Of a stretch of 64,000 nucleotides of DNA, positions 19,172-50,646 are shown piece after piece. The notes below the pieces were generated by a model that worked only from the letters and a program-made list of their open reading frames with translations, had not been told where the DNA came from and searched no databases. Made by a program: the position numbers and the translations under genes. The stretch's first letter is position 1, and every line of letters begins with the position of its first letter. This DNA comes from Escherichia coli O157:H7 (GTDB lineage Bacteria; Pseudomonadota; Gammaproteobacteria; Enterobacterales; Enterobacteriaceae): assembly GCF_013167455.1 (NCBI RefSeq), contig NZ_CP038328.1; one strand, 5' to 3'.

Positions 19172-20017
19172 TTATTTCAATGGCTCAACCGGTAAATCTG
19201 CCCGCGCGCCCCATTCACTCCATGCGCCGTCGTACAGTTTCACGTTTGGCACATCCAGCGTCGCGAGTGCCAACAAAACCACGGCTGCTGTTACACCAGA
19301 GCCGCAGCTGACGATAATTGGTTTGTCATAGCTGACGCCGCGACCAAAAAATATCGCATCCAGTTCATCGGTCGTTTTTAGTTCGCCTTCGCGCACCAGT
19401 TCCGTCCACGGAACGTTCAATGCACCGGGAATATGTCCGCGACGTAAACCTGGGCGAGGTTCATCAACTTCTGCGTTAAAACGTGCAGCCGGGCGGGCAT
19501 CAATAATTTGCGCCGTATTTTCATGGCTTGCCAATAACACATCGGTTACTTTCACCACTGCTTCAGGATTAAACGCGGCGTTAAACTCTCCTTCCGGCAG
19601 CTCTACTGCACCTTCTTCTAACAACAGATCATCGCGCTGCCAGCCTGCAAGTCCACCCCCCAGAATCGACACTTTCTCTACACCAAAGGTGCGCAGCATC
19701 CACCATGCTCGTGGGGCTGAGAAAAGATTACCTTCGTCATAGACAATCAGGTGCTTATCCTGGTTAACGCCTAATTCACGCATCGCCACGGCGAACGTTT
19801 CCGGGCGCGGCAGCATGTGCGGAAGCGGGGAAGTGTGATCAGAAAGCGCTTCGATATCAAAAAACACTGCGCCGGGAATATGTCCATTCAGATACTCCTG
19901 AGCAACGTTACGATCTTCCTGTCCAGGCGACGCCATGCGGGCATCGATAATCTGAATTTCCGGGTCATCAATATGTTCGGCGAGCCAGTCGGCTCCTACA
20001 AACCATGTCGTGGACAT
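19172..20017 (-). CDS. sseA: 3-mercaptopyruvate sulfurtransferase (tandem rhodanese domains)
   Basis: ORF track frame 19172..20176; start chosen at MSTTWFVGADWL (281 aa); catalytic Cys loop VSCGSGVTA. Confidence 0.9.
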   Translation of the reverse strand: MSTTWFVGADWLAEHIDDPEIQIIDARMASPGQEDRNVAQEYLNGHIPGAVFFDIEALSDHTSPLPHMLPRPETFAVAMRELGVNQDKHLIVYDEGNLFSAPRAWWMLRTFGVEKVSILGGGLAGWQRDDLLLEEGAVELPEGEFNAAFNPEAVVKVTDVLLASHENTAQIIDARPAARFNAEVDEPRPGLRRGHIPGALNVPWTELVREGELKTTDELDAIFFGRGVSYDKPIIVSCGSGVTAAVVLLALATLDVPNVKLYDGAWSEWGARADLPVEPLK

Positions 20018-20223
20018 AGGCATCTCCATTTTTGCCGGGGTTAGGCTAAATTGTCGGATGTTTAGTGAAAAGCGACAAGCAAAAGAGGCTGATTTGGCTG
20101 TCTGAGCCACAATTCTCACTAAAATTCGGATTGTATGGGCGTGATACTGAATTACATAACGTAAATTCTCACGCATAATAATTATTCGACGTTGCTAACG
20201 GGCCATTGTGGCAGGGATGAAAA

Positions 20224-23200
20224 ATGAAAAAGTTACGCGTAGCCGCCTGCATGCTAATGCTGGCGCTGGCAGGGTGCGACAACAACGATAACGCGCCAAC
20301 AGCGGTGAAAAAAGATGCGCCTTCTGAAGTTACTAAAGCGGCCTCTTCAGAAAACGCGAGTTCAGCAAAACTCTCCGCGCCAGAGCGACAAAAACTGGCC
20401 CAACAGAGTGCCGGTAAGGCGCTGACATTGCTGGATCTCTCTGAAGTCCAACTTGATGGTGCAGCCACGCTGGTGCTGACGTTCTCCATCCCTCTCGACC
20501 CGGATCAGGATTTCTCACGCGTTATTCATGTCGTCGATAAAAAAAGCGGCAAAGTGGATGGTGCCTGGGAGCTATCAGATAATCTTAAAGAGCTGCGTTT
20601 ACGCCACCTCGAACCGAAACGTGATTTGATCGTTACAATTGGCAAGGAGGTCAAAGCACTCAACAACGCAACCTTCAGTAAAGATTACGAAAAAACTATA
20701 ACTACCCGCGACATCCAACCCAGTGTCGGTTTTGCCAGCCGTGGTTCGCTGCTGCCTGGTAAAGTCGTTGAAGGGCTGCCGGTAATGGCGCTCAACGTTA
20801 ATAATGTCGATGTTAACTTCTTCCGCGTTAAGCCAGAATCTCTGCCAGCATTCATTAGCCAATGGGAATACCGCAATTCGCTGGCGAACTGGCAGTCAGA
20901 CAAACTGCTGCAGATGGCGGATCTGGTCTACACCGGACGGTTTGATCTCAATCCTGCGCGTAACACCCGTGAAAAATTATTGCTGCCGCTGGGCGATATC
21001 AAACCGCTTCAGCAGGCGGGCGTGTATCTGGCTGTGATGAATCAGGCTGGACGTTACGATTACAGTAATCCCGCGACGCTGTTTACGTTAAGTGATATCG
21101 GCGTTTCAGCTCACCGTTATCACAATCGTCTGGATATCTTTACCCAAAGTCTGGAAAACGGCGCGGCCCAGCAAGGAATTGAAGTCTCTTTATTAAATGA
21201 GAAAGGGCAGACTCTGACTCAGGCAACCAGTGACGCTCAGGGGCATGTGCAGCTGGAAAATGATAAAAACGCCGCATTATTGCTGGCACGTAAAGACGGT
21301 CAGACAACGCTACTCGATTTAAAACTTCCGGCGCTGGACTTAGCAGAATTTAACATTGCTGGCGCGCCAGGCTATAGCAAACAGTTTTTCATGTTTGGCC
21401 CGCGCGATCTTTATCGCCCGGGTGAAACGGTAATCCTCAATGGTTTGCTGCGTGATGCAGACGGTAAAGCGTTGCCCAATCAACCCATCAAGTTAGACGT
21501 GATTAAACCCGATGGGCAGGTACTCAGGAGCGTCGTTAGTCAGCCGGAAAATGGCCTCTACCACTTTACCTGGCCACTCGATAGCAATGCGGCAACCGGT
21601 ATGTGGCATATTCGCGCTAACACGGGCGATAACCAGTATCGGATGTGGGATTTCCACGTCGAAGATTTTATGCCAGAGCGTATGGCGCTGAATCTGACCG
21701 GTGAGAAAACCCCGCTTACGCCGAATGATGAAGTGAAATTCTCCGTGGTGGGATACTACCTGTACGGTGCGCCTGCTAATGGTAATACTTTGCAAGGGCA
21801 ACTTTTCCTGCGCCCACTGCGTGAGGCTGTGTCAGCCTTACCTGGTTTTGAATTCGGCGATATAGCTGCCGAAAACCTTTCCCGCACGCTGGATGAAGTT
21901 CAGTTGACGCTGGATGATAAAGGGCGCGGCGAAGTTTCTACAGAAAGCCAGTGGAAGGAAACGCATTCCCCATTGCAGGTTATTTTCCAGGGCAGTTTGC
22001 TGGAATCGGGCGGTCGCCCGGTGACGCGCCGCGCTGAGCAGGCTATCTGGCCTGCCGATGCATTGCCGGGGATCCGTCCGCAGTTCGCCTCGAAATCGGT
22101 TTACGATTATCGCACTGACAGCACGGTGAAACAGCCCATTGTTGATGAAGGCAGTAACGCCGCTTTTGACATCGTTTATAGCGATGCGCAAGGCGTGAAA
22201 AAAGCCGTGTCGGGCTTGCAGGTGCGCCTGATTCGCGAACGCCGCGATTACTACTGGAACTGGTCAGAAGATGAAGGCTGGCAATCACAGTTTGATCAAA
22301 AAGATCTGATTGAAAATGAACAAACTCTGGATCTGAAAGCGGACGAAACCGGCAAGGTCAGTTTCCCGGTAGAGTGGGGCGCTTATCGTCTGGAAGTCAA
22401 AGCGCCGAATGAAGCGGTCAGTAGTGTTCGTTTTTGGGCTGGCTATAGCTGGCAGGATAATAGCGACGGTAGCGGCGCAGTGCGACCCGACCGTGTCACG
22501 CTGAAACTGGATAAAGCCGGTTATCGCCCTGGCGATACCATTAAGTTGCATATCGCCGCGCCAACGGCGGGTAAAGGTTATGCGATGGTCGAGTCCAGTG
22601 AAGGGCCGCTGTGGTGGCAAGAGATTGATGTTCCGGCTCAAGGGCTGGATCTGACGATTCCGGTCGATAAAACCTGGAATCGTCATGATCTTTATTTGAG
22701 TACGCTGGTGGTGCGTCCTGGCGATAAATCTCGCTCCGCGACGCCAAAACGCGCGGTTGGTGTGTTGCATCTGCCGCTTGGTGATGAAAACCGTCGCCTC
22801 GATCTGGCGCTGGAAACACCAGCAAAAATGCGTCCCAATCAACCATTAACCGTGAAAATTAAAGCCAGCACTAAAAATGGCGAGAAGCCTAAACAGGTGA
22901 ATGTGCTGGTGTCTGCCGTTGATAGTGGTGTGCTGAATATTACTGACTACGTCACGCCAGATCCGTGGCAGGCGTTCTTTGGTCAGAAACGCTATGGCGC
23001 AGACATTTACGATATTTACGGTCAGGTTATTGAAGGTCAGGGGCGTCTGGCAGCTCTGCGTTTCGGTGGCGATGGTGATGAGCTGAAACGTGGTGGTAAA
23101 CCGCCGGTCAATCACGTCAATATTGTCGCGCAGCAGGCGCTGCCGGTAACGCTCAACGAACAGGGCGAAGGCTCGGTTACACTGCCGATTGGCGATTTTA

Positions 23201-25185
23201 ACGGTGAATTGCGCGTCATGGCGCAAGCCTGGACGGCAGATGAATTCGGTAGCAACGAAAGCAAAGTGATAGTTGCCGCACCGGTGATTGCTGAACTGAA
23301 CATGCCGCGCTTTATGGCGAGTGGCGATAACTCGCGTCTGACGCTGGATATCACTAATCTTACCGATAAACCGCAAAAACTGAACGTTGCCCTGACCGCC
23401 AGTGGTTTGCTTGAACTGGTCAGCGATTCACCCGCAGCCGTTGAATTAGCGCCAGGTGTGCGTACTACGCTGTTTATCCCGGTGCGAGCATTGCCGGGTT
23501 ATGGCGATGGAGAAATTCAGGCCACCATTAGCGGGTTAGCGTTACCGGGTGAAACCGTTGCCGATCAGCATAAGCAGTGGAAAATCGGCGTCCGTCCGGC
23601 GTTCCCGGCACAAACGGTTAATTACGGTACGGCGTTACAGCCTGGTGAGACATGGGCGATTCCGGCGGATGGATTGCAAAACTTCTCGCCTGTTACGCTG
23701 GAAGGGCAATTGTTGTTGAGCGGCAAACCACCGCTGAACATCGCACGTTATATCAAAGAGTTAAAAGCGTATCCGTACGGCTGTCTTGAGCAAACCGCCA
23801 GCGGCCTGTTCCCGTCACTTTATACCAACGCAGCCCAACTGCAGGCGTTGGGCATCAAAGGCGACAGTGATGAGAAACGCCGTGCATCGGTCGATATCGG
23901 CATTTCCCGTTTGCTGCAAATGCAACGTGATAACGGCGGCTTTGCGCTGTGGGATAAAAACGGTGACGAAGAGTACTGGCTGACGGCTTACGTGATGGAT
24001 TTCCTGGTCCGCGCAGGCGAACAGGGTTACAGCGTGCCGACAGACGCCATTAACCGGGGTAATGAGCGTCTGCTGCGCTATTTACAAGATCCGGGCATGA
24101 TGTCGATCCCGTACGCGGATAATCTCAAAGCCAGTAAATTCGCCGTACAGTCTTACGCTGCGCTGGTGTTGGCCCGTCAGCAAAAGGCTCCGCTGGGTGC
24201 GCTGCGTGAAATCTGGGAGCATCGTGCAGATGCCGCTTCTGGTTTACCGCTGCTGCAACTTGGCGTTGCGCTGAAAACCATGGGTGATGCGACGCGTGAT
24301 GAAGAAGCGATTGCGCTGGCGCTAAAAACGCCGCGTAATAGTGATGAGCGGATATGGCTGGGTGATTACGGTAGTCCACTGCGCGACAACGCGTTGATGC
24401 TCTCCTTGCTGGAAGAGAACAAACTGCTACCCGATGAGCAGTACTCCCTGCTGAACACACTTTCGCAGCAGGCGTTTGGTGAACGCTGGCTATCGACGCA
24501 GGAAAGTAACGCGTTGTTCCTGGCTGCCCGTACGATTCAGGATTTACCAGGTAAATGGCAGGCGCAAACCTCTTTCTCAGCTGAGCCGCTGACAGGCGAG
24601 AAAGCGCAAAACAGCAATCTGAATAGCGATCAACTTGCCACCTTGCAGGTGACCAACAGTGGCGAGCAGCCGTTATGGCTGCGTGTGGATGCCAGCGGTT
24701 ATCCGCAATCCGCACCTTTACCGGCGAACAATGTGCTGCAAATTGAGCGTCATATTCTTGGTACTGATGGTAAGAGCAAATCGCTGGACTCGTTACGTAG
24801 CGGCGATCTGGTGCTGGTCTGGTTGCAGGTAAAAGCTAGTAACAGCGTGCCGGATGCGTTAGTCGTGGATCTGCTGCCTGCGGGTCTGGAACTGGAAAAC
24901 CAGAATCTGGCGAACGGTAGCGCCAGCCTGGAGCAAAGTGGTGGCGAAGTGCAGAACTTACTGAACCAGATGCAGCAGGCGAGTATTAAGCACATTGAGT
25001 TCCGTGACGATCGCTTTGTGGCGGCGGTTGCCGTTGATGAATACCAACCGGTAACGCTGGTGTATCTGGCGCGGGCGGTGACGCCGGGAACGTATCAGGT
25101 ACCGCAACCGATGGTGGAATCAATGTATGTTCCCCAATGGCGGGCGACCGGCGCGGCTGAAGATTTGCTGATTGTCAGACCGTAA
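20224..25185 (+). CDS. yfhM: Alpha-2-macroglobulin family lipoprotein
   Basis: 1653 aa ORF; lipobox LALAGC at N-terminus; thioester motif GCLEQ present (YPYGCLEQTASG). Confidence 0.93.
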   Translation: MKKLRVAACMLMLALAGCDNNDNAPTAVKKDAPSEVTKAASSENASSAKLSAPERQKLAQQSAGKALTLLDLSEVQLDGAATLVLTFSIPLDPDQDFSRVIHVVDKKSGKVDGAWELSDNLKELRLRHLEPKRDLIVTIGKEVKALNNATFSKDYEKTITTRDIQPSVGFASRGSLLPGKVVEGLPVMALNVNNVDVNFFRVKPESLPAFISQWEYRNSLANWQSDKLLQMADLVYTGRFDLNPARNTREKLLLPLGDIKPLQQAGVYLAVMNQAGRYDYSNPATLFTLSDIGVSAHRYHNRLDIFTQSLENGAAQQGIEVSLLNEKGQTLTQATSDAQGHVQLENDKNAALLLARKDGQTTLLDLKLPALDLAEFNIAGAPGYSKQFFMFGPRDLYRPGETVILNGLLRDADGKALPNQPIKLDVIKPDGQVLRSVVSQPENGLYHFTWPLDSNAATGMWHIRANTGDNQYRMWDFHVEDFMPERMALNLTGEKTPLTPNDEVKFSVVGYYLYGAPANGNTLQGQLFLRPLREAVSALPGFEFGDIAAENLSRTLDEVQLTLDDKGRGEVSTESQWKETHSPLQVIFQGSLLESGGRPVTRRAEQAIWPADALPGIRPQFASKSVYDYRTDSTVKQPIVDEGSNAAFDIVYSDAQGVKKAVSGLQVRLIRERRDYYWNWSEDEGWQSQFDQKDLIENEQTLDLKADETGKVSFPVEWGAYRLEVKAPNEAVSSVRFWAGYSWQDNSDGSGAVRPDRVTLKLDKAGYRPGDTIKLHIAAPTAGKGYAMVESSEGPLWWQEIDVPAQGLDLTIPVDKTWNRHDLYLSTLVVRPGDKSRSATPKRAVGVLHLPLGDENRRLDLALETPAKMRPNQPLTVKIKASTKNGEKPKQVNVLVSAVDSGVLNITDYVTPDPWQAFFGQKRYGADIYDIYGQVIEGQGRLAALRFGGDGDELKRGGKPPVNHVNIVAQQALPVTLNEQGEGSVTLPIGDFNGELRVMAQAWTADEFGSNESKVIVAAPVIAELNMPRFMASGDNSRLTLDITNLTDKPQKLNVALTASGLLELVSDSPAAVELAPGVRTTLFIPVRALPGYGDGEIQATISGLALPGETVADQHKQWKIGVRPAFPAQTVNYGTALQPGETWAIPADGLQNFSPVTLEGQLLLSGKPPLNIARYIKELKAYPYGCLEQTASGLFPSLYTNAAQLQALGIKGDSDEKRRASVDIGISRLLQMQRDNGGFALWDKNGDEEYWLTAYVMDFLVRAGEQGYSVPTDAINRGNERLLRYLQDPGMMSIPYADNLKASKFAVQSYAALVLARQQKAPLGALREIWEHRADAASGLPLLQLGVALKTMGDATRDEEAIALALKTPRNSDERIWLGDYGSPLRDNALMLSLLEENKLLPDEQYSLLNTLSQQAFGERWLSTQESNALFLAARTIQDLPGKWQAQTSFSAEPLTGEKAQNSNLNSDQLATLQVTNSGEQPLWLRVDASGYPQSAPLPANNVLQIERHILGTDGKSKSLDSLRSGDLVLVWLQVKASNSVPDALVVDLLPAGLELENQNLANGSASLEQSGGEVQNLLNQMQQASIKHIEFRDDRFVAAVAVDEYQPVTLVYLARAVTPGTYQVPQPMVESMYVPQWRATGAAEDLLIVRP

Positions 25186-27498
25186 ATGCCTCGCTTGTTA
25201 ACCAAACGCGGCTGCTGGATAACGCTGGCAGCTGCGCCATTTCTCCTTTTTCTTGCAGCGTGGGGAGCAGATAAACTCTGGCCTCTACCGCTGCATGAAG
25301 TCAATCCCGCACGAGTGGTCGTGGCGCAGGATGGTACGCCGCTCTGGCGCTTCGCCGATGCTGACGGCATCTGGCGTTATCCTGTAACAATCGAAGATGT
25401 TTCTCCACGTTACCTTGAAGCGCTGATCAATTATGAAGATCGCTGGTTCTGGAAGCATCCTGGGGTGAATCCATTCTCGGTGGCGCGCGCAGCATGGCAA
25501 GATCTCACTTCGGGACGGGTTATTTCCGGTGGCAGCACGCTCACTATGCAGGTTGCTCGTCTGCTTGATCCTCACCCCAAAACATTTGGCGGCAAAATTC
25601 GCCAGCTCTGGCGCGCGTTGCAACTGGAATGGCATCTGTCTAAGCGTGAAATTCTGACCTTGTATCTTAACCGCGCTCCGTTTGGCGGTACGTTGCAGGG
25701 GATCGGTGCGGCAAGTTGGGCTTATCTCGGAAAGTCGCCTGCGAATTTAAGCTATTCCGAGGCGGCAATGCTGGCGGTTTTGCCGCAAGCGCCCAGCCGT
25801 CTTCGCCCGGATCGTTGGCCGGAGCGTGCCGAAGTCGCGCGTAATAAAGTGCTCGAACGGATGGCCGTGCAAGGTGTGTGGTCCCGTGAGCAGGTAAAAG
25901 AGTCAAGGGAAGAACCCATCTGGCTGGCACCCCGACAAATGCCGCAACTGGCACCGCTGTTTTCGCGCATGATGCTCGGTAAAAGCAAAAGCGACAAAAT
26001 CGTTACTACGCTGGATGCCGGTCTTCAACGACGTCTGGAAGAACTGGCGCAAAACTGGAAAGGACGATTACCACCGCGCAGCTCACTGGCGATGATCGTG
26101 GTTGATCATACCGATATGCGTGTTCGCGGCTGGGTGGGTTCGGTTGATCTCAACGATGATTCACGCTTTGGTCATGTTGATATGGTCAATGCGATCCGAT
26201 CGCCAGGATCGGTGCTCAAACCGTTTGTTTACGGTCTGGCGCTGGATGAAGGATTGATCCACCCGGCATCACTGCTGCAAGACGTCCCCCGGCGTACCGG
26301 TGATTACCGACCTGGCAACTTTGACAGCGGTTTTCATGGCCCGATCAGCATGAGCGAGGCGCTGGTGCGCTCGCTGAATTTACCTGCTGTGCAGGTGCTG
26401 GAAGCCTATGGACCGAAACGGTTTGCGGCAAAGTTACGCAATGTTGGATTGCCGTTATATTTGCCCAACGGTGCTGCGCCGAATCTTTCGCTCATTCTCG
26501 GCGGCGCTGGTGCGAAACTGGAAGATATGGCGGCAGCGTATACCGCGTTTGCTCGCCACGGCAAGGCAGGCAAATTGCGCTTACAGCCTGACGATCCGCT
26601 GCTTGAACGGCCTTTAATGTCGTCGGGAGCGGCGTGGATCATTCGCCGGATTATGGCTGATGAAGCGCTACCCTTGCCGGATGGTGCCTTGCCGCGCGTC
26701 GCCCCACTGGCATGGAAAACGGGCACCAGCTATGGCTATCGTGACGCCTGGGCGATTGGGGTTAACGCTCGCTATGTCATTGGGATCTGGACTGGCAGAC
26801 CGGACGGCACGCCCGTTGTTGGTCAGTTTGGTTTTGCCAGCGCCGTACCATTGTTGAATCAGGTCAATAATATCTTACTGTCGCGCAGTGCTAATCTGCC
26901 GGAAGACCCGCGCCCGAACTCAGTCACTCGTGGCGTTATTTGCTGGCCGGGCGGACAGTCTTTGCCGGAAGGTGACGGTAACTGTCGCCGCCGCCTGGCA
27001 ACCTGGCTGCTGGACGGGAGTCAGCCGCCAACTCTATTACTGCCGGAGCAGGAAGGCATTAATGGCATTCGTTTCCCCATCTGGCTGGATGAAAATGGCA
27101 AACGTGTTGCCGCTGATTGCCCGCAAGCGCGACAAGAAATGATAAATGTCTGGCCGCTACCGCTGGAACCCTGGTTGCCCGCATCAGAACGTCGCGCTGT
27201 GCGCTTACCACCGGCCTCGACAATTTGCCCGCCATACGGTCACGATGCCCAGCTCCCGCTGCAGCTGACAGGCGTTCGCGATGGCGAGATTATTAAACGT
27301 TTACCGGGCGCAGCGGAAGCGACTTTGCCGTTGCAATCAAGTGGAGGGGCAGGTGAACGCTGGTGGTTTCTGAATGGCGAACCGTTAACTGAACGCGGGC
27401 GCAACGTGACCCTGCATTTGACGGATAAAGGTGATTATCAATTGCTGGTGATGGATGACGTAGGGCAAATCGCGTCAGTACATTTTTCATTTCAGTGA
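25186..27498 (+). CDS. pbpC: Penicillin-binding protein 1C (bifunctional transglycosylase/transpeptidase)
   Basis: 770 aa ORF starting immediately after yfhM stop (taaATG); glycosyltransferase motifs EDRWFW and RQLWRALQLE. Confidence 0.93.
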   Translation: MPRLLTKRGCWITLAAAPFLLFLAAWGADKLWPLPLHEVNPARVVVAQDGTPLWRFADADGIWRYPVTIEDVSPRYLEALINYEDRWFWKHPGVNPFSVARAAWQDLTSGRVISGGSTLTMQVARLLDPHPKTFGGKIRQLWRALQLEWHLSKREILTLYLNRAPFGGTLQGIGAASWAYLGKSPANLSYSEAAMLAVLPQAPSRLRPDRWPERAEVARNKVLERMAVQGVWSREQVKESREEPIWLAPRQMPQLAPLFSRMMLGKSKSDKIVTTLDAGLQRRLEELAQNWKGRLPPRSSLAMIVVDHTDMRVRGWVGSVDLNDDSRFGHVDMVNAIRSPGSVLKPFVYGLALDEGLIHPASLLQDVPRRTGDYRPGNFDSGFHGPISMSEALVRSLNLPAVQVLEAYGPKRFAAKLRNVGLPLYLPNGAAPNLSLILGGAGAKLEDMAAAYTAFARHGKAGKLRLQPDDPLLERPLMSSGAAWIIRRIMADEALPLPDGALPRVAPLAWKTGTSYGYRDAWAIGVNARYVIGIWTGRPDGTPVVGQFGFASAVPLLNQVNNILLSRSANLPEDPRPNSVTRGVICWPGGQSLPEGDGNCRRRLATWLLDGSQPPTLLLPEQEGINGIRFPIWLDENGKRVAADCPQARQEMINVWPLPLEPWLPASERRAVRLPPASTICPPYGHDAQLPLQLTGVRDGEIIKRLPGAAEATLPLQSSGGAGERWWFLNGEPLTERGRNVTLHLTDKGDYQLLVMDDVGQIASVHFSFQ

Positions 27499-27592
27499 AA
27501 TATACAAAATATTTATTAATCTAATTATGGTATTTATATTTGGAATGCATTAATAATTTAATAATCTCACGTTTTTTTAAACGACTAATTAT

Positions 27593-27606
27593 TTGATTGT
27601 TATCAG
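27593..27606 (+). promoter_or_regulatory. FNR-like box upstream of the accessory molybdoenzyme operon
   Basis: TTGATtgttATCAg matches the FNR consensus TTGAT-N4-ATCAA at 9 of 10 positions, about 56 bp upstream of the ATG at 27662, inside an AT-rich intergenic region. Confidence 0.5.
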
Positions 27607-27661
27607 CATTGTTCTCGAATAAATACGTGAATATTTATTTTTTCATTTTCGGGAACGCAAG

Positions 27662-30043
27662 ATGGATACGCCAGACGAAAAGGAACGCATTACATTTCCG
27701 CAAGTATCACGACGTAGTTTTTTACAAGCGACTTCCGCGCTTATCACTTTGCCTTTTATTTCTTCTACCGCAAAGGCGCAATCCCCAGATGCGTCGCCAG
27801 AAGTTACAGCTCCAGTAGCTGATAAAGTCGTGCCCACCTGTAGCACATTTGACTGCGGTGGTAAGTGCGATATTCGGGCGCATATGCGCGACGGCGTGGT
27901 GACGCAAATTACCACGCTTCCCGATAACGAATTGGATCCACAAATGCCGATTATGCGCGCCTGTGTTCGTGGTCGCGGCTATCGTAAATTTGTTTATCAT
28001 CCAGACCGTTTGAAATATCCGATGAAGCGGGTAGGTAAACGAGGCGAGGGTAAATTTGAGCGTATCTCATGGGATGAGGCGACGACCTTAATTGCCGATA
28101 ACCTGAAAAGGATCACGCAACAATATGGCCCAGCTTCACGTTATGTCCATGTCGGGACGGCTGTTTCTGGTGGAACATTTTCTGGCGATGCGATGGCGCG
28201 TCGGCTGTTAAATTTAACCGGTGGTTATCTTGAATATTATCACTCAGTTAGTCTGGGTAATACTGCGGCGGCCACGCCTTACACGTATGGCGTGGCCGCG
28301 AGCGGTAACTCGATGGATACTCTTCTGGATACCAAACTGGTGATTCTCTGGGGGCATAACCCAACGGAAACCATATTCGGTCACACCAATTACTATTTTC
28401 AAAAAATGAAGCAAAACGGTACACGTTTTATCGTGGTGGATCCGCGCTATTCCGACACCGTATCTTCACTTGCCGATCAGTGGATCCCGCTGTTGCCGAC
28501 CACGGACAATGCGTTGATGGACGCGATGATGTACGTCATTATCAGCGAGAATCTCCACGATAAGACATTTATCGACACATATACTCTCGGTTTTGATGAA
28601 AACTCCATGCCGGAAGGCGTACCAGCCAACGAATCGTTGGTTGCCTACCTTTTTGGCGCAAAAGATGGGATACACAAAACGCCGGAATGGGCAGAAAAAA
28701 TTACCCACGTTCCAGCACAATCCATTCGTCAACTGGCACGCGATTACGCCACTACAAAACCCGCAGCGTTGATTCAGGGATGGGGGCCACAGCGACATAT
28801 TTGCGGCGAACGCACCGCCCGAGGTTCAACTTTACTGGCCTCGATTACCGGTAACGTCGGCATCAAAGGTGGCTGGGCGGCAGGTTACGGCGGTAGTTCT
28901 AATCGTAAATTCTGCGTTGGACCAGATATGCCAGAAAATCCGGTACAAGCGAAAATCTCGATTATGAACTGGATGCAGGCGGCGGATGATGCTTCTAAAG
29001 TTACGCCGCAAGATGGGCTTAAAGGTGTCGATAAACTCGACAGTAATATCCGCCTGCTGTTCTCACTGGCAGGTAATTATCTGGCGAACCAGAACCCGGA
29101 CGTCCACCAGGCCGCGAAGCTCCTTGAAGACGAATCTAAAATAGAATTCATCGTACTCAGCGATCTGTTCATGACTCCGAGCGCGAAATATGCCGATGTG
29201 TTGCTGCCGGAAACCAGCTTTATGGAACGCTGGAATATCGGCGAAACATGGGGAACTGCGAGCTATCTTATTCTGTCAGAAAAACCGATTGAGCCGGATT
29301 TTGAACGTCGCACCGATTATGACTGGTTGCGTGACGTGGCGAAAAAACTGGGTGTCGAAGCCGAGTTCAGTCAAGGACGTGATGAGAAGCAATGGATCGA
29401 GCATATCTGGGAGCAAACTCGTCTGGCGATGCCGGATGAAAATTTGCCGGACTTCGCAACCCTGCAAAAAACACGTCGACATCTTTTCAAAAGCGCGCCG
29501 CACATCGCTTTCGAAGCAAATATTCGCGATCCGCAGAATAATCCTTTCCCGACGCCTTCCGGCAAAATTGAGATCTTCTCTAAGCGTCTTTTTGATATGC
29601 AAGATCCAGAAATTCCCGCGCTTTCGCACTATGTCCCTGCCTTTGAAGGGCCAGAAGATAAACTGACGGCGAAATACCCGTTGCAGCTCATCACCTGGAA
29701 AGGGAAAAACCGTGCTAATTCCACCCAGTATGCTAACCCGTGGCTGCAAGAAGTTCAGACGCAAAAACTCTGGCTGAATCCGCAAGATGCAAAACAGCGC
29801 GGGATTAGCGAAGGAGATAGCGTAAAAATTTATAACGATCGTGGTGTGAGCATTATCCCGGTGGAAATAATCCCCCGTATCATCCCTGGCGTAGTTGCTA
29901 TGCAGGCGGGGGCATGGTGGCAACCGGATGCACAAGGTATCGATCGCGGAGGCTGTGCCAATGTACTGAGTTCGACCCGCATTACGGCGCTGGCGAAAGG
30001 GAATTCGCATCAAACAATGCTGGTGGAGGTTGAGAAAGCATGA
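27662..30043 (+). CDS. Tat-exported Mo-bisMGD oxidoreductase catalytic subunit, DMSO reductase (DmsA/YnfE) family; substrate unknown
   Basis: 793 aa ORF; twin-arginine signal SRRSFLQ...AKAQ; N-terminal Cys cluster CSTFDCGGKCD; block ACVRGRGYRKFVYHPDRLKYPMKRVGKRGEGKFERISWDEA nearly matches DmsA as recalled; ATGA overlap with next gene. Confidence 0.85.
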   Translation: MDTPDEKERITFPQVSRRSFLQATSALITLPFISSTAKAQSPDASPEVTAPVADKVVPTCSTFDCGGKCDIRAHMRDGVVTQITTLPDNELDPQMPIMRACVRGRGYRKFVYHPDRLKYPMKRVGKRGEGKFERISWDEATTLIADNLKRITQQYGPASRYVHVGTAVSGGTFSGDAMARRLLNLTGGYLEYYHSVSLGNTAAATPYTYGVAASGNSMDTLLDTKLVILWGHNPTETIFGHTNYYFQKMKQNGTRFIVVDPRYSDTVSSLADQWIPLLPTTDNALMDAMMYVIISENLHDKTFIDTYTLGFDENSMPEGVPANESLVAYLFGAKDGIHKTPEWAEKITHVPAQSIRQLARDYATTKPAALIQGWGPQRHICGERTARGSTLLASITGNVGIKGGWAAGYGGSSNRKFCVGPDMPENPVQAKISIMNWMQAADDASKVTPQDGLKGVDKLDSNIRLLFSLAGNYLANQNPDVHQAAKLLEDESKIEFIVLSDLFMTPSAKYADVLLPETSFMERWNIGETWGTASYLILSEKPIEPDFERRTDYDWLRDVAKKLGVEAEFSQGRDEKQWIEHIWEQTRLAMPDENLPDFATLQKTRRHLFKSAPHIAFEANIRDPQNNPFPTPSGKIEIFSKRLFDMQDPEIPALSHYVPAFEGPEDKLTAKYPLQLITWKGKNRANSTQYANPWLQEVQTQKLWLNPQDAKQRGISEGDSVKIYNDRGVSIIPVEIIPRIIPGVVAMQAGAWWQPDAQGIDRGGCANVLSSTRITALAKGNSHQTMLVEVEKA

Positions 30044-30669
30044 GCCAATTTAAAGAATTTGCATCTGTCAGCGACAAACAATTAGGGTTCTTTATTGACT
30101 CTTCGCGTTGTTCGGGCTGTAAAGCGTGTCAGGTGGCCTGTAAAGACAAAAACAACCTTGAGGTTGGGCGACGTTTTCGCCGCGTGTATGAAGTGAACGG
30201 AGGTGGCTTCATCGCCACTGGAGAGGGCGGTGTGAGTCATAATGTCTTTGCTTATACCCTTTCTGTTTCCTGTAACCATTGCGCGGATCCGATCTGTACC
30301 AAAAATTGCCCGACGATGGCGATGCATAAGCGTCCCGGAGACGGTATTGTGCGCGTGAATACTGATAAGTGCGTCGGTTGCGGTTACTGCGCCTGGTCCT
30401 GTCCTTACGGCGCACCACAAATGAATGAGCAGACCGGGCAGATGTCGAAATGCGATTTCTGTATTGATCTGCAAGCTAAAGGAGAACAACCCATTTGCGT
30501 GGCAACGTGCCCGTTGGGGGCGATTAAGTTCGGCCCTATTGATGAGTTGCGTGAAAAGTATGGCGATGTCAGTGATGTGAAAGGTTTACCTGATTCGTCG
30601 ATTACGCAGCCAAATCTGGTGATTAAACCGCATCAGGGCGCGGAAAAGGAGGCGTCACATCATGCATGA
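30040..30669 (+). CDS. Four-cluster [4Fe-4S] electron-transfer subunit, DmsB/YnfG family
   Basis: 209 aa ORF with four ferredoxin Cys motifs (CSGCKACQVAC, CNHCADPICTKNCP, CVGCGYCAWSCP, CDFC...CVATCP); GGAGG Shine-Dalgarno; overlaps neighbours. Confidence 0.85.
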   Translation: MSQFKEFASVSDKQLGFFIDSSRCSGCKACQVACKDKNNLEVGRRFRRVYEVNGGGFIATGEGGVSHNVFAYTLSVSCNHCADPICTKNCPTMAMHKRPGDGIVRVNTDKCVGCGYCAWSCPYGAPQMNEQTGQMSKCDFCIDLQAKGEQPICVATCPLGAIKFGPIDELREKYGDVSDVKGLPDSSITQPNLVIKPHQGAEKEASHHA

Positions 30670-31483
30670 ATTACCGTTAATGGCTTTTACGCTGTTGTTA
30701 CAGGCATCGGTCGGTATGACGTTGTGGCTGGCGTTTCTTCATCGTCATATTTTAATCACCTCCAGCGCCCGCCCGGTTATGCGGCCGCCATTACTGTTGG
30801 CTTTTTTGGCAGGTGCCGTAGGGTTACTGATTTCTACCTTACACCTGGGTTATCCACTTAATGCGATGCATGCGCTGAGCCACTTTTCCAGTTCATGGCT
30901 GAGTCGGGAAATTATCTTTGGTGCGCTGTATCTGGCGCTATTGGGTTTATCCACATTACTGGTCATGTTACGCAAAGGCGGCTGGCAACTCCTGCTTATG
31001 CTAGCGGCAGTGGTCGGGATTGTTGATGTTTTCTGCATGGCGCAAGTTTACATCCATACGTCGATTATCACCTGGCAGCATTACAACACGCTGATTATGT
31101 TCTTAGGTACAGTGGGAATTCTCGGTTCAGCGCTGGTAGCAGTGTTTCGTATTAGCGGAATTTTGCCGCAGATTGATGCCCTGCGTAATGGATGCGTGTT
31201 GGTGATCGCTCTCCTGGTTCTGCTGCGTTTGTTGGTTCAGCCGTTGTGGATAGGGGATTTAACGGCAAATGCGATGCAGATAGCCACATTGCCACATGCG
31301 CCATTAGCGATGCTGGGACAGTTAAAACCCATACTGACACTAAGCTGGGGAATTTCCGTCATTGGGATGATGTTCTTTGCTGTCGGTGGTTGTAAAAAGA
31401 ATATCCCGGCGGCGTTATTCGGTAGCGTAATGCTAGTGGGGAGTGAAGTTATGCTGCGTTTTGTCTTTTTTAGTATCGGCTAA
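30662..31483 (+). CDS. Integral membrane anchor subunit, DmsC/YnfH family
   Basis: 273 aa ORF with about 8 hydrophobic segments; AGGAGG Shine-Dalgarno; 8 bp overlap with upstream gene and TAATG overlap with downstream gene. Confidence 0.75.
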   Translation: MHELPLMAFTLLLQASVGMTLWLAFLHRHILITSSARPVMRPPLLLAFLAGAVGLLISTLHLGYPLNAMHALSHFSSSWLSREIIFGALYLALLGLSTLLVMLRKGGWQLLLMLAAVVGIVDVFCMAQVYIHTSIITWQHYNTLIMFLGTVGILGSALVAVFRISGILPQIDALRNGCVLVIALLVLLRLLVQPLWIGDLTANAMQIATLPHAPLAMLGQLKPILTLSWGISVIGMMFFAVGGCKKNIPAALFGSVMLVGSEVMLRFVFFSIG

Positions 31484-32337
31484 TGTTAAGTCATAACATA
31501 ACGATTGGCGCGGAATGCGCGCGCCAACGCTTTCGTTTTGCAACATGTCATGCCTGTGTCGAGGCTTGCCCGGCACAGGCGCTAACGCTGACAGAAGAGG
31601 GCATAGCGGTCGACGCGGAACAATGTATTGATTGTGCGGTTTGCCAGTTTATTTGTCCGCAAGAGGCTATTCGTGGCGTTAATTCCCCTTTACGTTATTT
31701 TTGCAATCACACCCTGGTCGCACCTTTCACCACTATTGCGCCGACGCTGGAAGAACTTTTGCTATGGCATAAAGAGCAGGGGATCACAGCGATCGCGATT
31801 GATCTGAGTCAGGCGAAGGCATGGGAGCGCGCATTATTGCTGTTAAACGAATGCTTACGGCAATATGGCGAGGAAGGCTGGTCTGTGGTATCTCCACATA
31901 CCAGTGAGGTGAATGTTTCCCGGCGTCGTTTGTTCCATGTGCAGCGTGCGGATGTTCAGATGACACAAATACAACCAGGATTACGTCGGTTACATTATTT
32001 ATGGCCCCAGATTAGTGATGCTCGCCCGATGATGGATCCTCAAAAGTGTCAGCTTTGCGGTGCATGCTGGCGGGCCTGCGAGCAACAGGTCTTTTCGCTT
32101 AACGAAGGCCATTTACAAATAAATGATGCCTTGTGTAACGGATGCCAAAATTGTATTGCTGTTTGTTTTCATCAGGCAATGACCGTTGAATTGACGATTC
32201 TACCGGCAAAAATTGTGAATCTTCATGCTAATCGCAAAGTCTGTAAAACCTGTCAAAAATCCTTTCTTACTTTTCAGCAAAATGCGCAAAATTGTCTTTA
32301 TTGCCAACGTCATCGTTATGGGATGAGAACACCATAA
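31483..32337 (+). CDS. Cysteine-rich polyferredoxin-like protein (NapF/iron-sulfur maturation-like?), function unknown
   Basis: 284 aa ORF, no signal peptide; motifs CHACVEACP, CIDCAVCQFICP, CQLCGACWRACE, CNGCQNCIAVC, plus C-terminal CKTC-x13-CLYC; translationally coupled to the membrane subunit. Confidence 0.7.
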   Translation: MLSHNITIGAECARQRFRFATCHACVEACPAQALTLTEEGIAVDAEQCIDCAVCQFICPQEAIRGVNSPLRYFCNHTLVAPFTTIAPTLEELLLWHKEQGITAIAIDLSQAKAWERALLLLNECLRQYGEEGWSVVSPHTSEVNVSRRRLFHVQRADVQMTQIQPGLRRLHYLWPQISDARPMMDPQKCQLCGACWRACEQQVFSLNEGHLQINDALCNGCQNCIAVCFHQAMTVELTILPAKIVNLHANRKVCKTCQKSFLTFQQNAQNCLYCQRHRYGMRTP

Positions 32338-32477
32338 AAGTCGAGTTGTTGCTAAAACTCATTTTATTTTAAAAAAATGTTACCTTCATCAATAGTCAAC
32401 GGCTCTGTTGCTCATTATAATCCGCGCCATCTCGTACGCTGGTACAGACAACAACAGAACAATTTACAGAGGTAAAA

Positions 32478-32909
32478 ATGGCTATTGAACGTACTTTTTC
32501 CATTATCAAACCGAACGCGGTAGCAAAAAACGTCATTGGTAATATCTTTGCGCGCTTTGAAGCTGCAGGGTTCAAAATTGTCGGCACCAAAATGCTGCAC
32601 CTGACCGTTGAACAGGCACGTGGCTTTTATGCTGAACACGATGGAAAACCGTTCTTTGATGGTCTGGTTGAATTCATGACCTCTGGCCCGATCGTGGTTT
32701 CCGTGCTGGAAGGTGAAAACGCCGTTCAGCGTCACCGCGATCTGCTGGGCGCGACCAATCCGGCAAACGCACTGGCCGGTACTCTGCGCGCTGATTACGC
32801 TGACAGCCTGACCGAAAACGGTACCCACGGTTCTGATTCCGTCGAATCTGCCGCTCGCGAAATCGCTTATTTCTTCGGCGAAGGCGAAGTGTGCCCGCGC
32901 ACCCGTTAA
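32478..32909 (+). CDS. ndk: Nucleoside diphosphate kinase
   Basis: 143 aa [24 protein letters not shown] with active-site NGTHGSDS. Confidence 0.95.
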
Positions 32910-48261: not shown

Positions 48262-48275
48262 TTGATATATATCAA
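48262..48275 (+). promoter_or_regulatory. Consensus FNR box upstream of pdeF
   Basis: TTGATatatATCAA is an exact match to TTGAT-N4-ATCAA, in the AT-rich divergent region between yfgG and pdeF. Confidence 0.65.
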
Positions 48276-48402: not shown

Positions 48403-50646
48403 ATGAAACTGAATGCAACTTATATAAAAATACGTGATAAATGGTGGGGGCTTCCGCTGTTCCTGCCTTCTTTAATCTTGCCCATTTTCGCCCACATTAA
48501 TACTTTCGCGCATATTTCTTCCGGTGAGGTTTTTCTCTTTTATCTGCCTCTGGCACTGATGATCAGCATGATGATGTTTTTCAGCTGGGCGGCATTGCCA
48601 GGGATCGCCTTAGGGATTTTTGTCCGCAAATATGCAGAGCTGGGTTTTTACGAAACGCTCTCATTAACGGCTAATTTTATTATCATTATCATTCTCTGTT
48701 GGGGCGGTTACAGGGTCTTTACTCCCCGGCGTAACAACGTTTCACATGGTGATACCCGTTTAATTTCCCAGCGTATATTCTGGCAGATTGTGTTTCCTGC
48801 AACGCTGTTTCTGATACTTTTCCAGTTTGCTGCATTTGTAGGATTACTGGCGAGCAGAGAAAATCTGGTTGGCGTCATGCCTTTTAATCTCGGGACCTTA
48901 ATCAATTATCAGGCCTTACTGGTGGGCAATCTGATTGGTGTCCCGCTGTGCTACTTCATCATTCGGGTAGTGCGAAATCCGTTTTATTTACGTAGTTATT
49001 ATTCGCAATTAAAACAGCAGGTTGATGTCAAAGTCACCAAAAAAGAGTTCGCACTCTGGCTGCTGGCATTAGGTGCTTTACTGTTGCTGTTATGCATGCC
49101 GTTAAATGAAAAAAGCACAATTTTTAGCACCAATTATACCTTGTCATTATTGCTGCCCCTGATGATGTGGGGAGCGATGCGCTATGGTTATAAGCTGATT
49201 TCGCTGCTCTGGGCGGTCGTGTTGATGATCAGCATCCACAGCTATCAAAATTACATTCCCATTTATCCTGGCTATACCACGCAGCTGACCATAACCTCCT
49301 CCAGTTATCTGGTATTCTCTTTTATTGTCAATTATATGGCTGTACTGGCAACCCGTCAGAGAACGGTAGTCAGACGCATTCAGCGCCTTGCGTATGTGGA
49401 CCCGGTGGTTCATCTGCCAAATGTTCGCGCCCTGAATCGCGCGTTGCGTGATGCCCCCTGGTCTGCGCTTTGTTATTTACGCATCCCTGGCATGGAAATG
49501 CTGGTTAAAAACTATGGCATCATGCTGCGGATTCAATACAAGCAAAAACTTTCTCACTGGCTGTCACCCTTGCTGGAACCAGGTGAAGATGTTTATCAGC
49601 TTTCGGGTAACGATCTCGCGCTGCGACTGAATACAGAATCGCACCAGGAGCGCATTACCGCACTGGATAGCCATCTCAAGCAATTTCGTTTCTTTTGGGA
49701 TGGCATGCCGATGCAACCGCAGATTGGCGTCAGTTACTGCTATGTGCGCTCGCCAGTGAATCATATCTACCTGCTGCTGGGAGAGCTAAATACGGTCGCC
49801 GAACTTTCCATCGTGACCAACGCCCCGGAAAATATGCAGCGTCGCGGGGCAATGTATTTGCAACGCGAATTGAAAGATAAAGTCGCGATGATGAATCGAC
49901 TACAGCAGGCGCTGGAACACAACCATTTTTTCCTGATGGCCCAGCCGATTACCGGTATGCGTGGTGATGTTTACCATGAAATTCTTCTGCGCATGAAAGG
50001 TGAGAATGATGAACTAATCGGCCCCGATAGCTTCTTGCCGGTCGCGCACGAATTTGGTTTATCGTCGAGTATCGACATGTGGGTCATTGAGCATACGCTG
50101 CAATTTATGGCTGAAAACAGAGCGAAGATGCCCGCTCACCGTTTTGCTATTAATCTGTCTCCAACCTCGGTATGTCAGGCTCGTTTTCCTGTTGAAGTCA
50201 GTCAGTTGCTGGATAAATATCAGATTGAAGCGTGGCAACTTATTTTTGAAGTCACCGAAAGTAATGCTCTGACCAATGTTAAGCAGGCGCAAATCACCTT
50301 GCAGCATCTTCAGGAATTAGGCTGCCAGATTGCGATTGATGATTTCGGCACCGGCTACGCCAGCTATGCGCGGCTTAAAAATGTGAATGCCGATCTGCTT
50401 AAAATTGACGGCAGTTTTATCCGCAATATTGTGTCAAATAGTCTGGATTATCAGATAGTGGCATCGATTTGCCACCTGGCGCGAATGAAGAAAATGCGGG
50501 TAGTGGCAGAGTACGTTGAAAACGAAGAGATCCGCGAGGCGGTGCTCTCTTTGGGGATCGATTATATGCAGGGTTATCTTATTGGTAAGCCGCAACCGTT
50601 AATTGATACGCTGAATGAAATCGAACCCATTCGCGAAAGTGCCTGA
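48403..50646 (+). CDS. pdeF: Membrane-bound c-di-GMP phosphodiesterase (MASE1, degenerate GGDEF, EAL)
   Basis: 747 aa ORF; multi-pass N-terminal half; EAL-domain signature in C-terminal half. Confidence 0.9.
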   Translation: MKLNATYIKIRDKWWGLPLFLPSLILPIFAHINTFAHISSGEVFLFYLPLALMISMMMFFSWAALPGIALGIFVRKYAELGFYETLSLTANFIIIIILCWGGYRVFTPRRNNVSHGDTRLISQRIFWQIVFPATLFLILFQFAAFVGLLASRENLVGVMPFNLGTLINYQALLVGNLIGVPLCYFIIRVVRNPFYLRSYYSQLKQQVDVKVTKKEFALWLLALGALLLLLCMPLNEKSTIFSTNYTLSLLLPLMMWGAMRYGYKLISLLWAVVLMISIHSYQNYIPIYPGYTTQLTITSSSYLVFSFIVNYMAVLATRQRTVVRRIQRLAYVDPVVHLPNVRALNRALRDAPWSALCYLRIPGMEMLVKNYGIMLRIQYKQKLSHWLSPLLEPGEDVYQLSGNDLALRLNTESHQERITALDSHLKQFRFFWDGMPMQPQIGVSYCYVRSPVNHIYLLLGELNTVAELSIVTNAPENMQRRGAMYLQRELKDKVAMMNRLQQALEHNHFFLMAQPITGMRGDVYHEILLRMKGENDELIGPDSFLPVAHEFGLSSSIDMWVIEHTLQFMAENRAKMPAHRFAINLSPTSVCQARFPVEVSQLLDKYQIEAWQLIFEVTESNALTNVKQAQITLQHLQELGCQIAIDDFGTGYASYARLKNVNADLLKIDGSFIRNIVSNSLDYQIVASICHLARMKKMRVVAEYVENEEIREAVLSLGIDYMQGYLIGKPQPLIDTLNEIEPIRESA

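Follow-up and report, generated by a model that had tools for sequence, protein, structure and literature searches.

Why does the chromosome of Escherichia coli O157:H7 carry four genes between pbpC and ndk, which are neighbours in K-12, what do these genes encode, and how did the locus arise? We addressed these questions in a stretch of 64,000 nucleotides from contig NZ_CP038328.1 (assembly GCF_013167455.1), called the window hereafter. Between the core genes pbpC (25186-27498, + strand) on the left and ndk (32478-32909, + strand) on the right, both placed by the list of open reading frames (ORFs) and the RefSeq annotation, lie four intact ORFs on the + strand, here named A, B, C and D, all of which are translationally coupled. 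We are rather confident that they encode a fourth anaerobic respiratory enzyme of the DmsABC type, orthologous to Psr1 of Salmonella, and that they constitute an ancestral locus that was lost from most E. coli. For this explanation we draw on gene content, motifs, orthology by synteny, distribution, conservation of an FNR box and purifying selection. The operon is the Escherichia orthologue of Salmonella STM2530-STM2527 (psr1) and, as it is annotated in RefSeq and its orthologue has been studied, it is real but already known.

Subunits of the enzyme and the polyferredoxin D

An earlier reading of this DNA, made without database searches (the sequence-only reading), had given coordinates and overlaps for the four genes, and all of them proved exact when compared with the ORF list and the sequence itself. 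A (27662-30043, + strand) encodes a protein of 793 amino acids (aa), B (30040-30669, +) one of 209 aa, C (30662-31483, +) one of 273 aa and D (31483-32337, +) one of 284 aa. A and B overlap in ATGA, B and C share 8 bp (ATGCATGA), and C and D meet in TAATG. RefSeq labels A as 'DMSO/selenate family reductase complex A subunit' (DMSO, dimethyl sulfoxide), B as the matching 'B subunit', C as 'dimethyl sulfoxide reductase anchor subunit family protein' and D as '4Fe-4S dicluster domain-containing protein'. The region 27300-32600 is 100% identical to strain ECP19-598 and many other O157:H7 chromosomes. Ratios of nonsynonymous to synonymous substitution rates (dN/dS) within Escherichia were 0.06-0.08 for A, 0-0.11 for B, 0.11-0.24 for C and 0.17-0.63 for D; judged from their sequences, A to D are functional genes under purifying selection, without decay. 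The catalytic ORF, for which a pseudogene had been considered as a concern, is intact in the window.

A belongs to the DmsA/YnfE subfamily of molybdenum bis-pyranopterin guanine dinucleotide (Mo-bisPGD) enzymes. It matches model TIGR02166 (dmsA_ynfE) over its full length with 1122.2 bits at a cutoff of 777.7, and DMSO and trimethylamine N-oxide (TMAO) reductases in the PDB with 1e-81. Its identity is 43% to DmsA, 40% to YnfE and 43% to YnfF, and it stays below the curated cutoffs of the respective models NF011566 (704.7 bits, cutoff 1600), NF041885 (667.6, cutoff 1675) and NF041884 (692.3, cutoff 1650). A twin-arginine translocation (Tat) motif SRRSFL occupies residues 16-21 (27707-27724, + strand), with the arginine pair present in at least 77 of the 79 orthologues, and is followed by a hydrophobic stretch and AKA-Q, for which export is predicted. 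The motif of the FS0 [4Fe-4S] cluster, CSTFDCGGKC (27839-27868, +; sequence and alignment), has the spacing C-x4-C-x3-C, in contrast to C-x3-C-x3-C in DmsA, YnfE and YnfF, and its Cys60, Cys65 and Cys69 as well as the fourth cysteine, Cys101, are invariant in the 79 orthologues. Ser197 (codon at 28250-28252, +), the predicted molybdenum ligand within YHSVS-x-GN, aligns with Ser147 of the Rhodobacter sphaeroides DMSO reductase (1eu1) and with the serine of DmsA; this residue and its motif are again invariant, as are 290 of the 793 positions of A. The active-site neighbours read HSVS(L/M)GN as opposed to GDYSSAQ in DmsA, A has a 5-residue deletion, and the positions of DorA Tyr114 and Trp116 are taken by Val and Thr, so that equivalents of these residues are absent. 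These results agree with the earlier assignment of A as a predicted Tat-exported catalytic subunit of the Mo-bis(molybdopterin guanine dinucleotide) type.

B and C had been taken for a four-cluster iron-sulfur subunit and a DmsC-like anchor, and both assignments hold. B scores 265.8 bits against TIGR02951 (DmsB; cutoff 214.1), is 58% identical to DmsB and to YnfG, carries 16 cysteines in four motifs for four [4Fe-4S] clusters and is devoid of a signal peptide. C matches the Pfam family DmsC (PF04976) over its full length with 1.5e-23 and displays about eight hydrophobic segments in a hydropathy scan. A histidine and a glutamate of C, equivalent to the quinol-site residues His65 and Glu87 of DmsC, are invariant in all orthologues aligned.

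The operon thus shares with E. coli DmsABC the three subunits, the Tat signal on A, the serine ligand of molybdenum, the four-cluster B and the anchor with His65/Glu87. However, identities amount to 43% for A, 58% for B and about 33% for C (N-terminal half only), FS0 of A is one residue longer, the active-site neighbours and the 5-residue deletion set A apart, and D is added. The selenate/tellurate reductase paralogue YnfEFGH-DmsD belongs to the same subfamily (A 40-43% identical to YnfE/YnfF, B 58% to YnfG), but our operon has a single A gene, a polyferredoxin in place of the TorD-family chaperone gene, and an A that scores far below the YnfE and YnfF models. The closest system is Salmonella STM2530-STM2527 (STM14_3103-3100), where the same four genes occur in the same order at the same site (seen in subspecies arizonae and diarizonae), with A 82-84% and B 86-87% identical, a shared C-x4-C-x3-C motif, an FNR box at the same distance from the start of A, and an STM2530 that is 43% identical to DmsA, the same value as for E. 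coli A. In S. Typhimurium LT2 the flanking genes STM2526 and STM2531 are presumably ndk and pbpC. The Salmonella system differs in C (about 51% identical) and D (about 37-39%), and the E. coli copy is found in 7% of complete E. coli genomes.

D is a polyferredoxin, as had been proposed, with two Fer4 dicluster domains. Its 20 cysteines are all invariant among 31 orthologues of 26-95% identity. They are arranged in four [4Fe-4S] motifs, of which one reads C-x9-C-x2-C-x3-C, and in a CxxC-x13-CxxC-xx-H at the C-terminus; conservation also extends to ELLxWH, LN, W133 and S/A-R-R-x-L. Predictions for D comprise a small alpha/beta domain in the middle of the protein and no signal peptide or transmembrane segment. 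The AlphaFold2 model has a predicted local distance difference test (pLDDT) score of 89.9, and a fold search returned ferredoxin folds only. The nearly invariant S/A-R-R-x-L/F at residues 145-151 resembles a twin-arginine motif, with no hydrophobic segment after it, and residues 142-151 form the sole low-confidence loop of the model (pLDDT below 50). A comparable SRR motif occurs at the N-terminus of NapF, the polyferredoxin of the periplasmic nitrate reductase operon.

A profile search with D among 1.84 billion representatives yielded 92 proteins at E up to 1e-30. Distant full-length relatives of D are again encoded after a DmsC gene, while relatives of 336-351 aa occur in two operons with a DmsA-like enzyme, a TorD-like chaperone and c-type cytochromes but without DmsC, one of the two also encoding a DmsB-like protein. 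Since D-like proteins accompany DmsA/B-like enzymes that have no DmsC, D tracks the A/B module and not the anchor. The company it keeps in genomes marks D as an accessory dedicated to this clade of enzymes, which it always follows, even in distant homologues, and as a conserved but uncharacterised companion of DmsA/B-type enzymes in different phyla. A 336-aa D-like protein ends an operon of genes for a multihaem cytochrome, DmsA-, DmsB- and TorD-like proteins and a cytochrome c (L095 2618-8011 and 8151-15011; L096); this operon adjoins a pbpC/alpha-2-macroglobulin pair, as in E. coli, which may be a coincidence.

By analogy with NapF, D is most likely a cytoplasmic helper in the maturation or redox handling of the A/B precursor. 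Like D, NapF is a poly-[4Fe-4S] protein without a signal peptide whose gene belongs to the operon of a molybdoenzyme exported by Tat, and in both proteins an S-R-R-x-L-like motif precedes a CxxCxxCxxxC-E cluster motif by a few tens of residues. However, NapF has 164 aa as compared to 284 aa for D, which adds the alpha/beta middle domain and the C-terminal Cys4-His site. Membership of D in the NapF family itself was rejected, as the similarity is at the level of motifs (best local E 5e-05 over 25 residues); no NapF model was among the 25 best NCBIfam matches listed. D was also rejected as a Tat chaperone of the TorD/DmsD type, because it has Fer4 domains only and no PF02613, and because Atlantibacter and Chimaeribacter encode D and a separate PF02613 protein. 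Such a TorD/DmsD-family gene of about 190-200 aa (PF02613) follows D in Atlantibacter, Chimaeribacter and Pantoea haifensis (L027, L028, L037, L038, L076), and a PF02613 gene follows C in a 69%-identical paralogue without D in Proteus, Providencia and Morganella (L059-L072, L080); the E. coli and Salmonella version of the operon lacks a chaperone gene of this family. Conceivable, though doubtful, is a role of D as a fourth structural subunit that either leaves the cytoplasm together with A/B or binds to C from the cytoplasmic side, and extends the electron chain. Four canonical [4Fe-4S] sites resemble those of electron-wire proteins, D is coupled translationally to C, and B is likewise exported though signal-less. 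Docking on C is difficult to reconcile with D-like proteins that accompany DmsA/B-like enzymes without any DmsC, the standard DmsABC wire needs no additional clusters, and the fast evolution of D (37-39% identity between E. coli and Salmonella versus 82-89% for A/B; dN/dS up to 0.63) would be unusual for a core structural subunit. Moreover, the construct used for complementation in Salmonella comprised STM14_3103-3101, that is A to C without D (PMC12636705).

Junctions, distribution and history of the locus

A K-12 derivative has pbpC next to ndk, as the sequence-only reading had stated, with a spacer of 148 bp, and the four genes, whose presence there would have spoken against a difference between the strains, are not found between them. 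Comparison of the junctions bounded the indel at about 27476 and 32345, where 4.87 kb in O157 takes the place of about 40 unrelated bases in K-12. K-12 homology stops on the left at about 27476, within the final 8 codons of pbpC (about 27476-27498), and the indel alters the C-terminus of PbpC, which reads SVHFSFQ before the stop in carriers and TVKFVMQ in K-12 (1675-1699 of the K-12 stretch L002). This C-terminus was considered as a polarity marker for the junction and discarded as uninformative, for other genera end in V(N/S/T)FEL, equally far from both tails. The intergenic region with the predicted operon promoter (27499-27661, + strand; 163 bp, 22% GC) is absent from K-12. On the right, the junction lies at 32338-32344 (+), homology to the K-12 spacer restarts at about 32345 (TTGTTGCTAAAACT...), and the ndk upstream region 32345-32477 (+), in which the promoter scan located a sigma-70-like site TAGTCA-17-TATAAT at 32393-32421, is common to K-12 and outside the insert. 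Both flanks had been described as AT-rich, and with GC contents of 22.1% (27499-27661) and 36.4% (32338-32477), compared to 49.3% for the operon and 56.4% for pbpC, they are; however, since 32345-32477 occurs in K-12 as well, only the left AT-rich flank belongs to the insert.

None of the features of a mobile genomic island (integrase or transposase, tRNA or att target, direct repeats, deviant composition) was encountered. A tRNA search at the locus was negative, the locus ORFs and the annotation include neither integrase nor transposase, and flanking direct or inverted repeats are limited to short matches at chance level, which bears out the corresponding claims of the sequence-only reading. 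An inverted pair spanning the borders (I1, 73% complementary) was rejected as an island boundary, its right arm being located in sequence shared with K-12. An Rfam scan of 27200-32700, which would include a riboswitch for the molybdenum cofactor (Moco), gave nothing at E up to 1.

Among 5,426 complete E. coli genomes, 380 (7%) contain operon sequence and 379 hold at least 80% of the operon; each copy lies on the chromosome and is the only one in its genome. When the ranking was sampled at even spacing, about four-fifths of the carriers proved at least 99.9% identical to the window, representing O157:H7, O55:H7 and relatives, and the other approximately 75 carriers, which are 97.8-99.5% identical, include pig, baboon, dog, fish, bear and human isolates. 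All non-carriers listed share one pattern across the empty site, a 470-bp match in two pieces. In E. coli ZF8-1 (NZ_CP178597.1, L087 3963-5137), IS1A replaces nearly the whole operon, of which 108 bp of A and 315 bp of D are left; the loss, mediated by IS1, is recent and independent and shows ongoing decay. An 85% match in E. coli P276M (NZ_CP044293.1, L088) was rejected as a variant locus and assigned to a frameshift-ridden assembly region. The yfhM-rodZ region of this strain is full of frameshifted pseudogenes, ndk is unannotated there, and the assembly looks error-rich.

In a wider scan with one genome per species, orthologues of A were detected across Enterobacterales at 67-99% identity. 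The order yfhM-pbpC-A-B-C-D-ndk-rlmN is present at two Salmonella loci, from S. enterica subsp. diarizonae and arizonae, and at 11 more loci outside Salmonella. Six Enterobacter lineages, Superficieibacter, Huaxiibacter, a Lelliottia, the metagenome-assembled genome UBA5654 and the two cryptic Escherichia lineages E1V33 and MOD1-EC7003 have it, so that it holds in at least six genera plus the cryptic Escherichia. The Salmonella cluster beside ndk, mentioned in the sequence-only reading, is therefore present at the same site in these two subspecies, and at least five further genera share it. At other genome sites, the A-B-C-D unit occurs in Citrobacter, Leclercia, Atlantibacter, Rahnella, Proteus and others. 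Between E. coli and Salmonella, A (82-84%) and B (86-87%) are about as identical as PbpC (81-82%), YfhM (82%) and Ndk (94-95%), and across the syntenic genera the divergence of A/B (82-89% identity) is comparable to that of the flanking pbpC/ndk (76-95%); fast evolution marks C (about 51%) and D (37-39%) in all lineages. Shared synteny, native GC content and the lack of mobility genes support, at the level of the family, the view that the locus is ancestral and was then lost from K-12, although for O157 itself simple retention is only one possibility, given the E1V33-like allele described below.

How the O157 lineage came to its copy can be read in different ways. Insertion of a recent genomic island, in which a mobile element or illegitimate recombination would have put 4.9 kb into an empty pbpC-ndk spacer, would account for the patchy occurrence in E. 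coli, where about 80% of the 380 carriers fall into the O157:H7/O55:H7 lineage, for the strongly AT-rich left boundary and for the altered 3' end of pbpC. With no integrase, transposase, tRNA or flanking repeat, a native GC content of 49%, and A/B diverging among genera about like pbpC and ndk, this scenario is hardly credible, and the recurrence of insertion point and gene order in Salmonella, Enterobacter, Superficieibacter, Huaxiibacter, Lelliottia and cryptic Escherichia largely refutes it. A much stronger contender, to which we give somewhat less than even credence, is that the O157 lineage regained the operon from another Escherichia lineage by homologous recombination, the locus being ancient in the genus and its inheritance discontinuous. 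Compared with Escherichia sp. E1V33 (L004 versus window 19660-32337), the operon is 97.7% and yfhM-pbpC 91.9% identical in nucleotides, synonymous divergence (dS) is 0.04-0.09 for A to D and 0.32 for pbpC, and identity switches near 27150, at what looks like the boundary of a recombination tract. The O157 flanks are those of an ordinary E. coli (97-100% identical to K-12). Because the operon is less diverged than its flank, homologous recombination via conserved flanks has moved alleles between Escherichia lineages. Two E. coli carriers differ mosaically within A (91-100% per 300 bp), and the same two-piece empty-site match of 470 bp in the non-carriers listed is as if one deletion allele were shared. 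However, the direction of transfer cannot be read from these data, E1V33 may have been the recipient, and the MOD1-EC7003 allele has diverged from O157 (dS 0.13-0.28) as vertical descent predicts. Within Escherichia the locus behaves, as far as its alleles tell, as a presence/absence polymorphism shuffled by homologous recombination. We therefore suggest for the history of the operon that an ancestor of Escherichia, Salmonella and Enterobacter would have held it at the pbpC-ndk site, that it would have been deleted from most E. coli, and that it now persists as a presence/absence polymorphism exchanged by homologous recombination.

Two arrangements outside this group were observed. At nine Photorhabdus loci (L044 7932-10358; L041, L043, L045-L048, L050, L075) an intact lone A orthologue of 75% identity, with Tat signal and CSTFDCGG motif kept, has no B, C or D beside it and may be a soluble enzyme or one served in trans. 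In Budvicia and Limnobaculum (L036 12244-15785; L082 12173-15170) a second, more DmsABC-like cluster, whose A is 38-39% identical to the query, lies directly downstream of A-B-C, and no D gene was detected there.

Literature and substrate class

For Salmonella, Cruz et al. (bioRxiv 10.1101/2022.11.29.517730) counted STM2530-STM2527 among three operons resembling dmsABC and noted its fourth gene. In their study, STM2530 shares 43% identity with DmsA of E. coli and failed to restore DMSO-dependent anaerobic growth; Typhi and Paratyphi A have it as a pseudogene. In a Research Square preprint, Kim et al. (2025) renamed STM14_3103 as psr1A, reported that the C-x4-C-x3-C FS0 motif singles out the Psr1A clade and that a mutant in the orthologue respires DMSO and methionine sulfoxide (MetSO) normally, and claimed that psr1 and two paralogues are periplasmic sulfate reductases acting at FS0 without Moco (PMC12636705). 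The signature of the Psr1A clade is present in A and invariant in the 79 orthologues. Both studies are silent on the E. coli copy and on gene D. Gut and systemic fitness have both been linked to the Salmonella orthologue.

As the substrate, DMSO and MetSO are both improbable, and another S- or N-oxide or an oxyanion is favoured. The sequence-only reading had cautioned that the substrate cannot be inferred; this caution is upheld. Sulfate, claimed in the preprint, is the single experimental proposal to date. That the operon merely provides a redundant DMSO/MetSO isoenzyme of DmsABC would suit a TIGR02166 subfamily member with DmsB and DmsC partners and a conserved serine ligand. We regard this as very improbable, considering the 43% identity of A to DmsA, its 705, 668 and 692 bits against DmsA, YnfE and YnfF cutoffs of 1600-1675, the different active-site neighbours with the 5-residue deletion and no DorA Tyr114/Trp116 equivalents, and the Salmonella results, in which STM2530 did not restore DMSO-dependent growth and deletion left respiration of DMSO and MetSO intact. 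Only a little less improbable is that the enzyme acts as the periplasmic sulfate reductase Psr1, which would convert sulfate into sulfite at the FS0 [4Fe-4S] cluster without involving molybdenum. Membranes lacking the four dmsA paralogues are reported to lose viologen-linked sulfate reduction (PMC12636705), and the FS0 motif of the Psr1A clade is confirmed as invariant in A. However, the preprint is unreviewed, and its electron paramagnetic resonance and moa-deletion experiments were done on Psr3, not on Psr1. At about -516 mV, the sulfate/sulfite couple is far more negative than menaquinol (about -74 mV) or benzyl viologen (about -360 mV), and on account of this low potential known pathways activate sulfate to adenosine 5'-phosphosulfate first. 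In addition, Ser197, YHSVS-x-GN, the 290 invariant positions of A and its dN/dS of 0.06-0.08 are poorly compatible with a dispensable molybdenum site. Given the Psr3-based experiments, the thermodynamics and the conserved molybdenum ligand and pterin domain, we take the claim of the preprint as a lead only.

A broader proposal seems to us unlikely too, if less so than Mo-independent sulfate reduction by itself: the clade with C-x4-C spacing in FS0 and its dedicated D would form a distinct respiratory or assimilatory module with a chemistry unlike S-oxide reduction, possibly FS0-centred sulfate reduction or reduction of another oxyanion, with D as an essential factor for maturation or electron input, and would give O157:H7 an anaerobic capability that K-12 lacks. 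Identification of the substrate would help to explain respiration or sulfur acquisition of enteric pathogens in the gut and would also test the extraordinary claim of molybdenum-independent sulfate reduction.

Regulation and proposed mechanism

An FNR-box-like palindrome (TTGATTGTTATCAG; 27593-27606, + strand), found by motif scan and agreeing with the consensus at 9 of 10 positions, is centred 62.5 bp upstream of the start of A. Of 79 orthologous loci, 44 have an FNR box with at most one mismatch at a distance of 55-76 bp upstream of A, and in the 64-kb window four sites with at most one mismatch to the FNR consensus were seen where 2.5 are expected by chance. The Salmonella orthologue is reported to be among the most FNR-activated loci (PMC12636705). 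As read from its sequence, the operon would be one metabolic difference between O157:H7 and K-12, an anaerobic enzyme of the FNR type.

From these features we infer the topology and the path of the electrons, a dependence on FNR in E. coli, what D does and which class the substrate belongs to, and propose the following mechanism for a psr1-orthologous respiratory enzyme. FNR would activate a promoter in the AT-rich spacer and lead to anaerobic expression. A would be loaded in the cytoplasm with Mo-bisPGD and the FS0 [4Fe-4S] cluster, with D as a NapF-like cytoplasmic helper for the A/B precursor and DmsD assumed to assist maturation in trans, and the Tat pathway would export A with the signal-less B carried along. 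The A-B pair would dock on the membrane anchor C, which may oxidise menaquinol at its conserved His/Glu site, and electrons would pass through the four clusters of B and FS0 to the Ser197-ligated molybdenum, where an oxo-substrate would be reduced in the periplasm.

Several points weigh against this explanation or parts of it. The FNR site carries one mismatch, and FNR dependence in E. coli is deduced from the motif. A TorD-type chaperone gene is missing from the E. coli operon, unlike in some lineages, which is why DmsD in trans had to be assumed. The helper role of D is drawn from analogy, its similarity to NapF is generic, the fold search was ferredoxin-only, and export together with A/B, as an additional subunit in the periplasm, is an alternative for D. 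Moco-independent catalysis, as claimed in the preprint for the Salmonella paralogues, conflicts with an electron path that ends at molybdenum. The O157 allele is closer to E1V33 than its flanks are, so that vertical retention in O157 stays a possibility only. Finally, our literature search returned no paper on, or naming, the E. coli copy.

In a consensus scan for promoters and terminators, no signal within the operon exceeded the shuffled expectation, and no terminator was found behind pbpC or behind D. Elsewhere in the window, a perfect FNR palindrome (TTGATATATATCAA) is located at 48262-48275, about 130 bp upstream of pdeF (yfgF; start at 48403), a known FNR-dependent gene.

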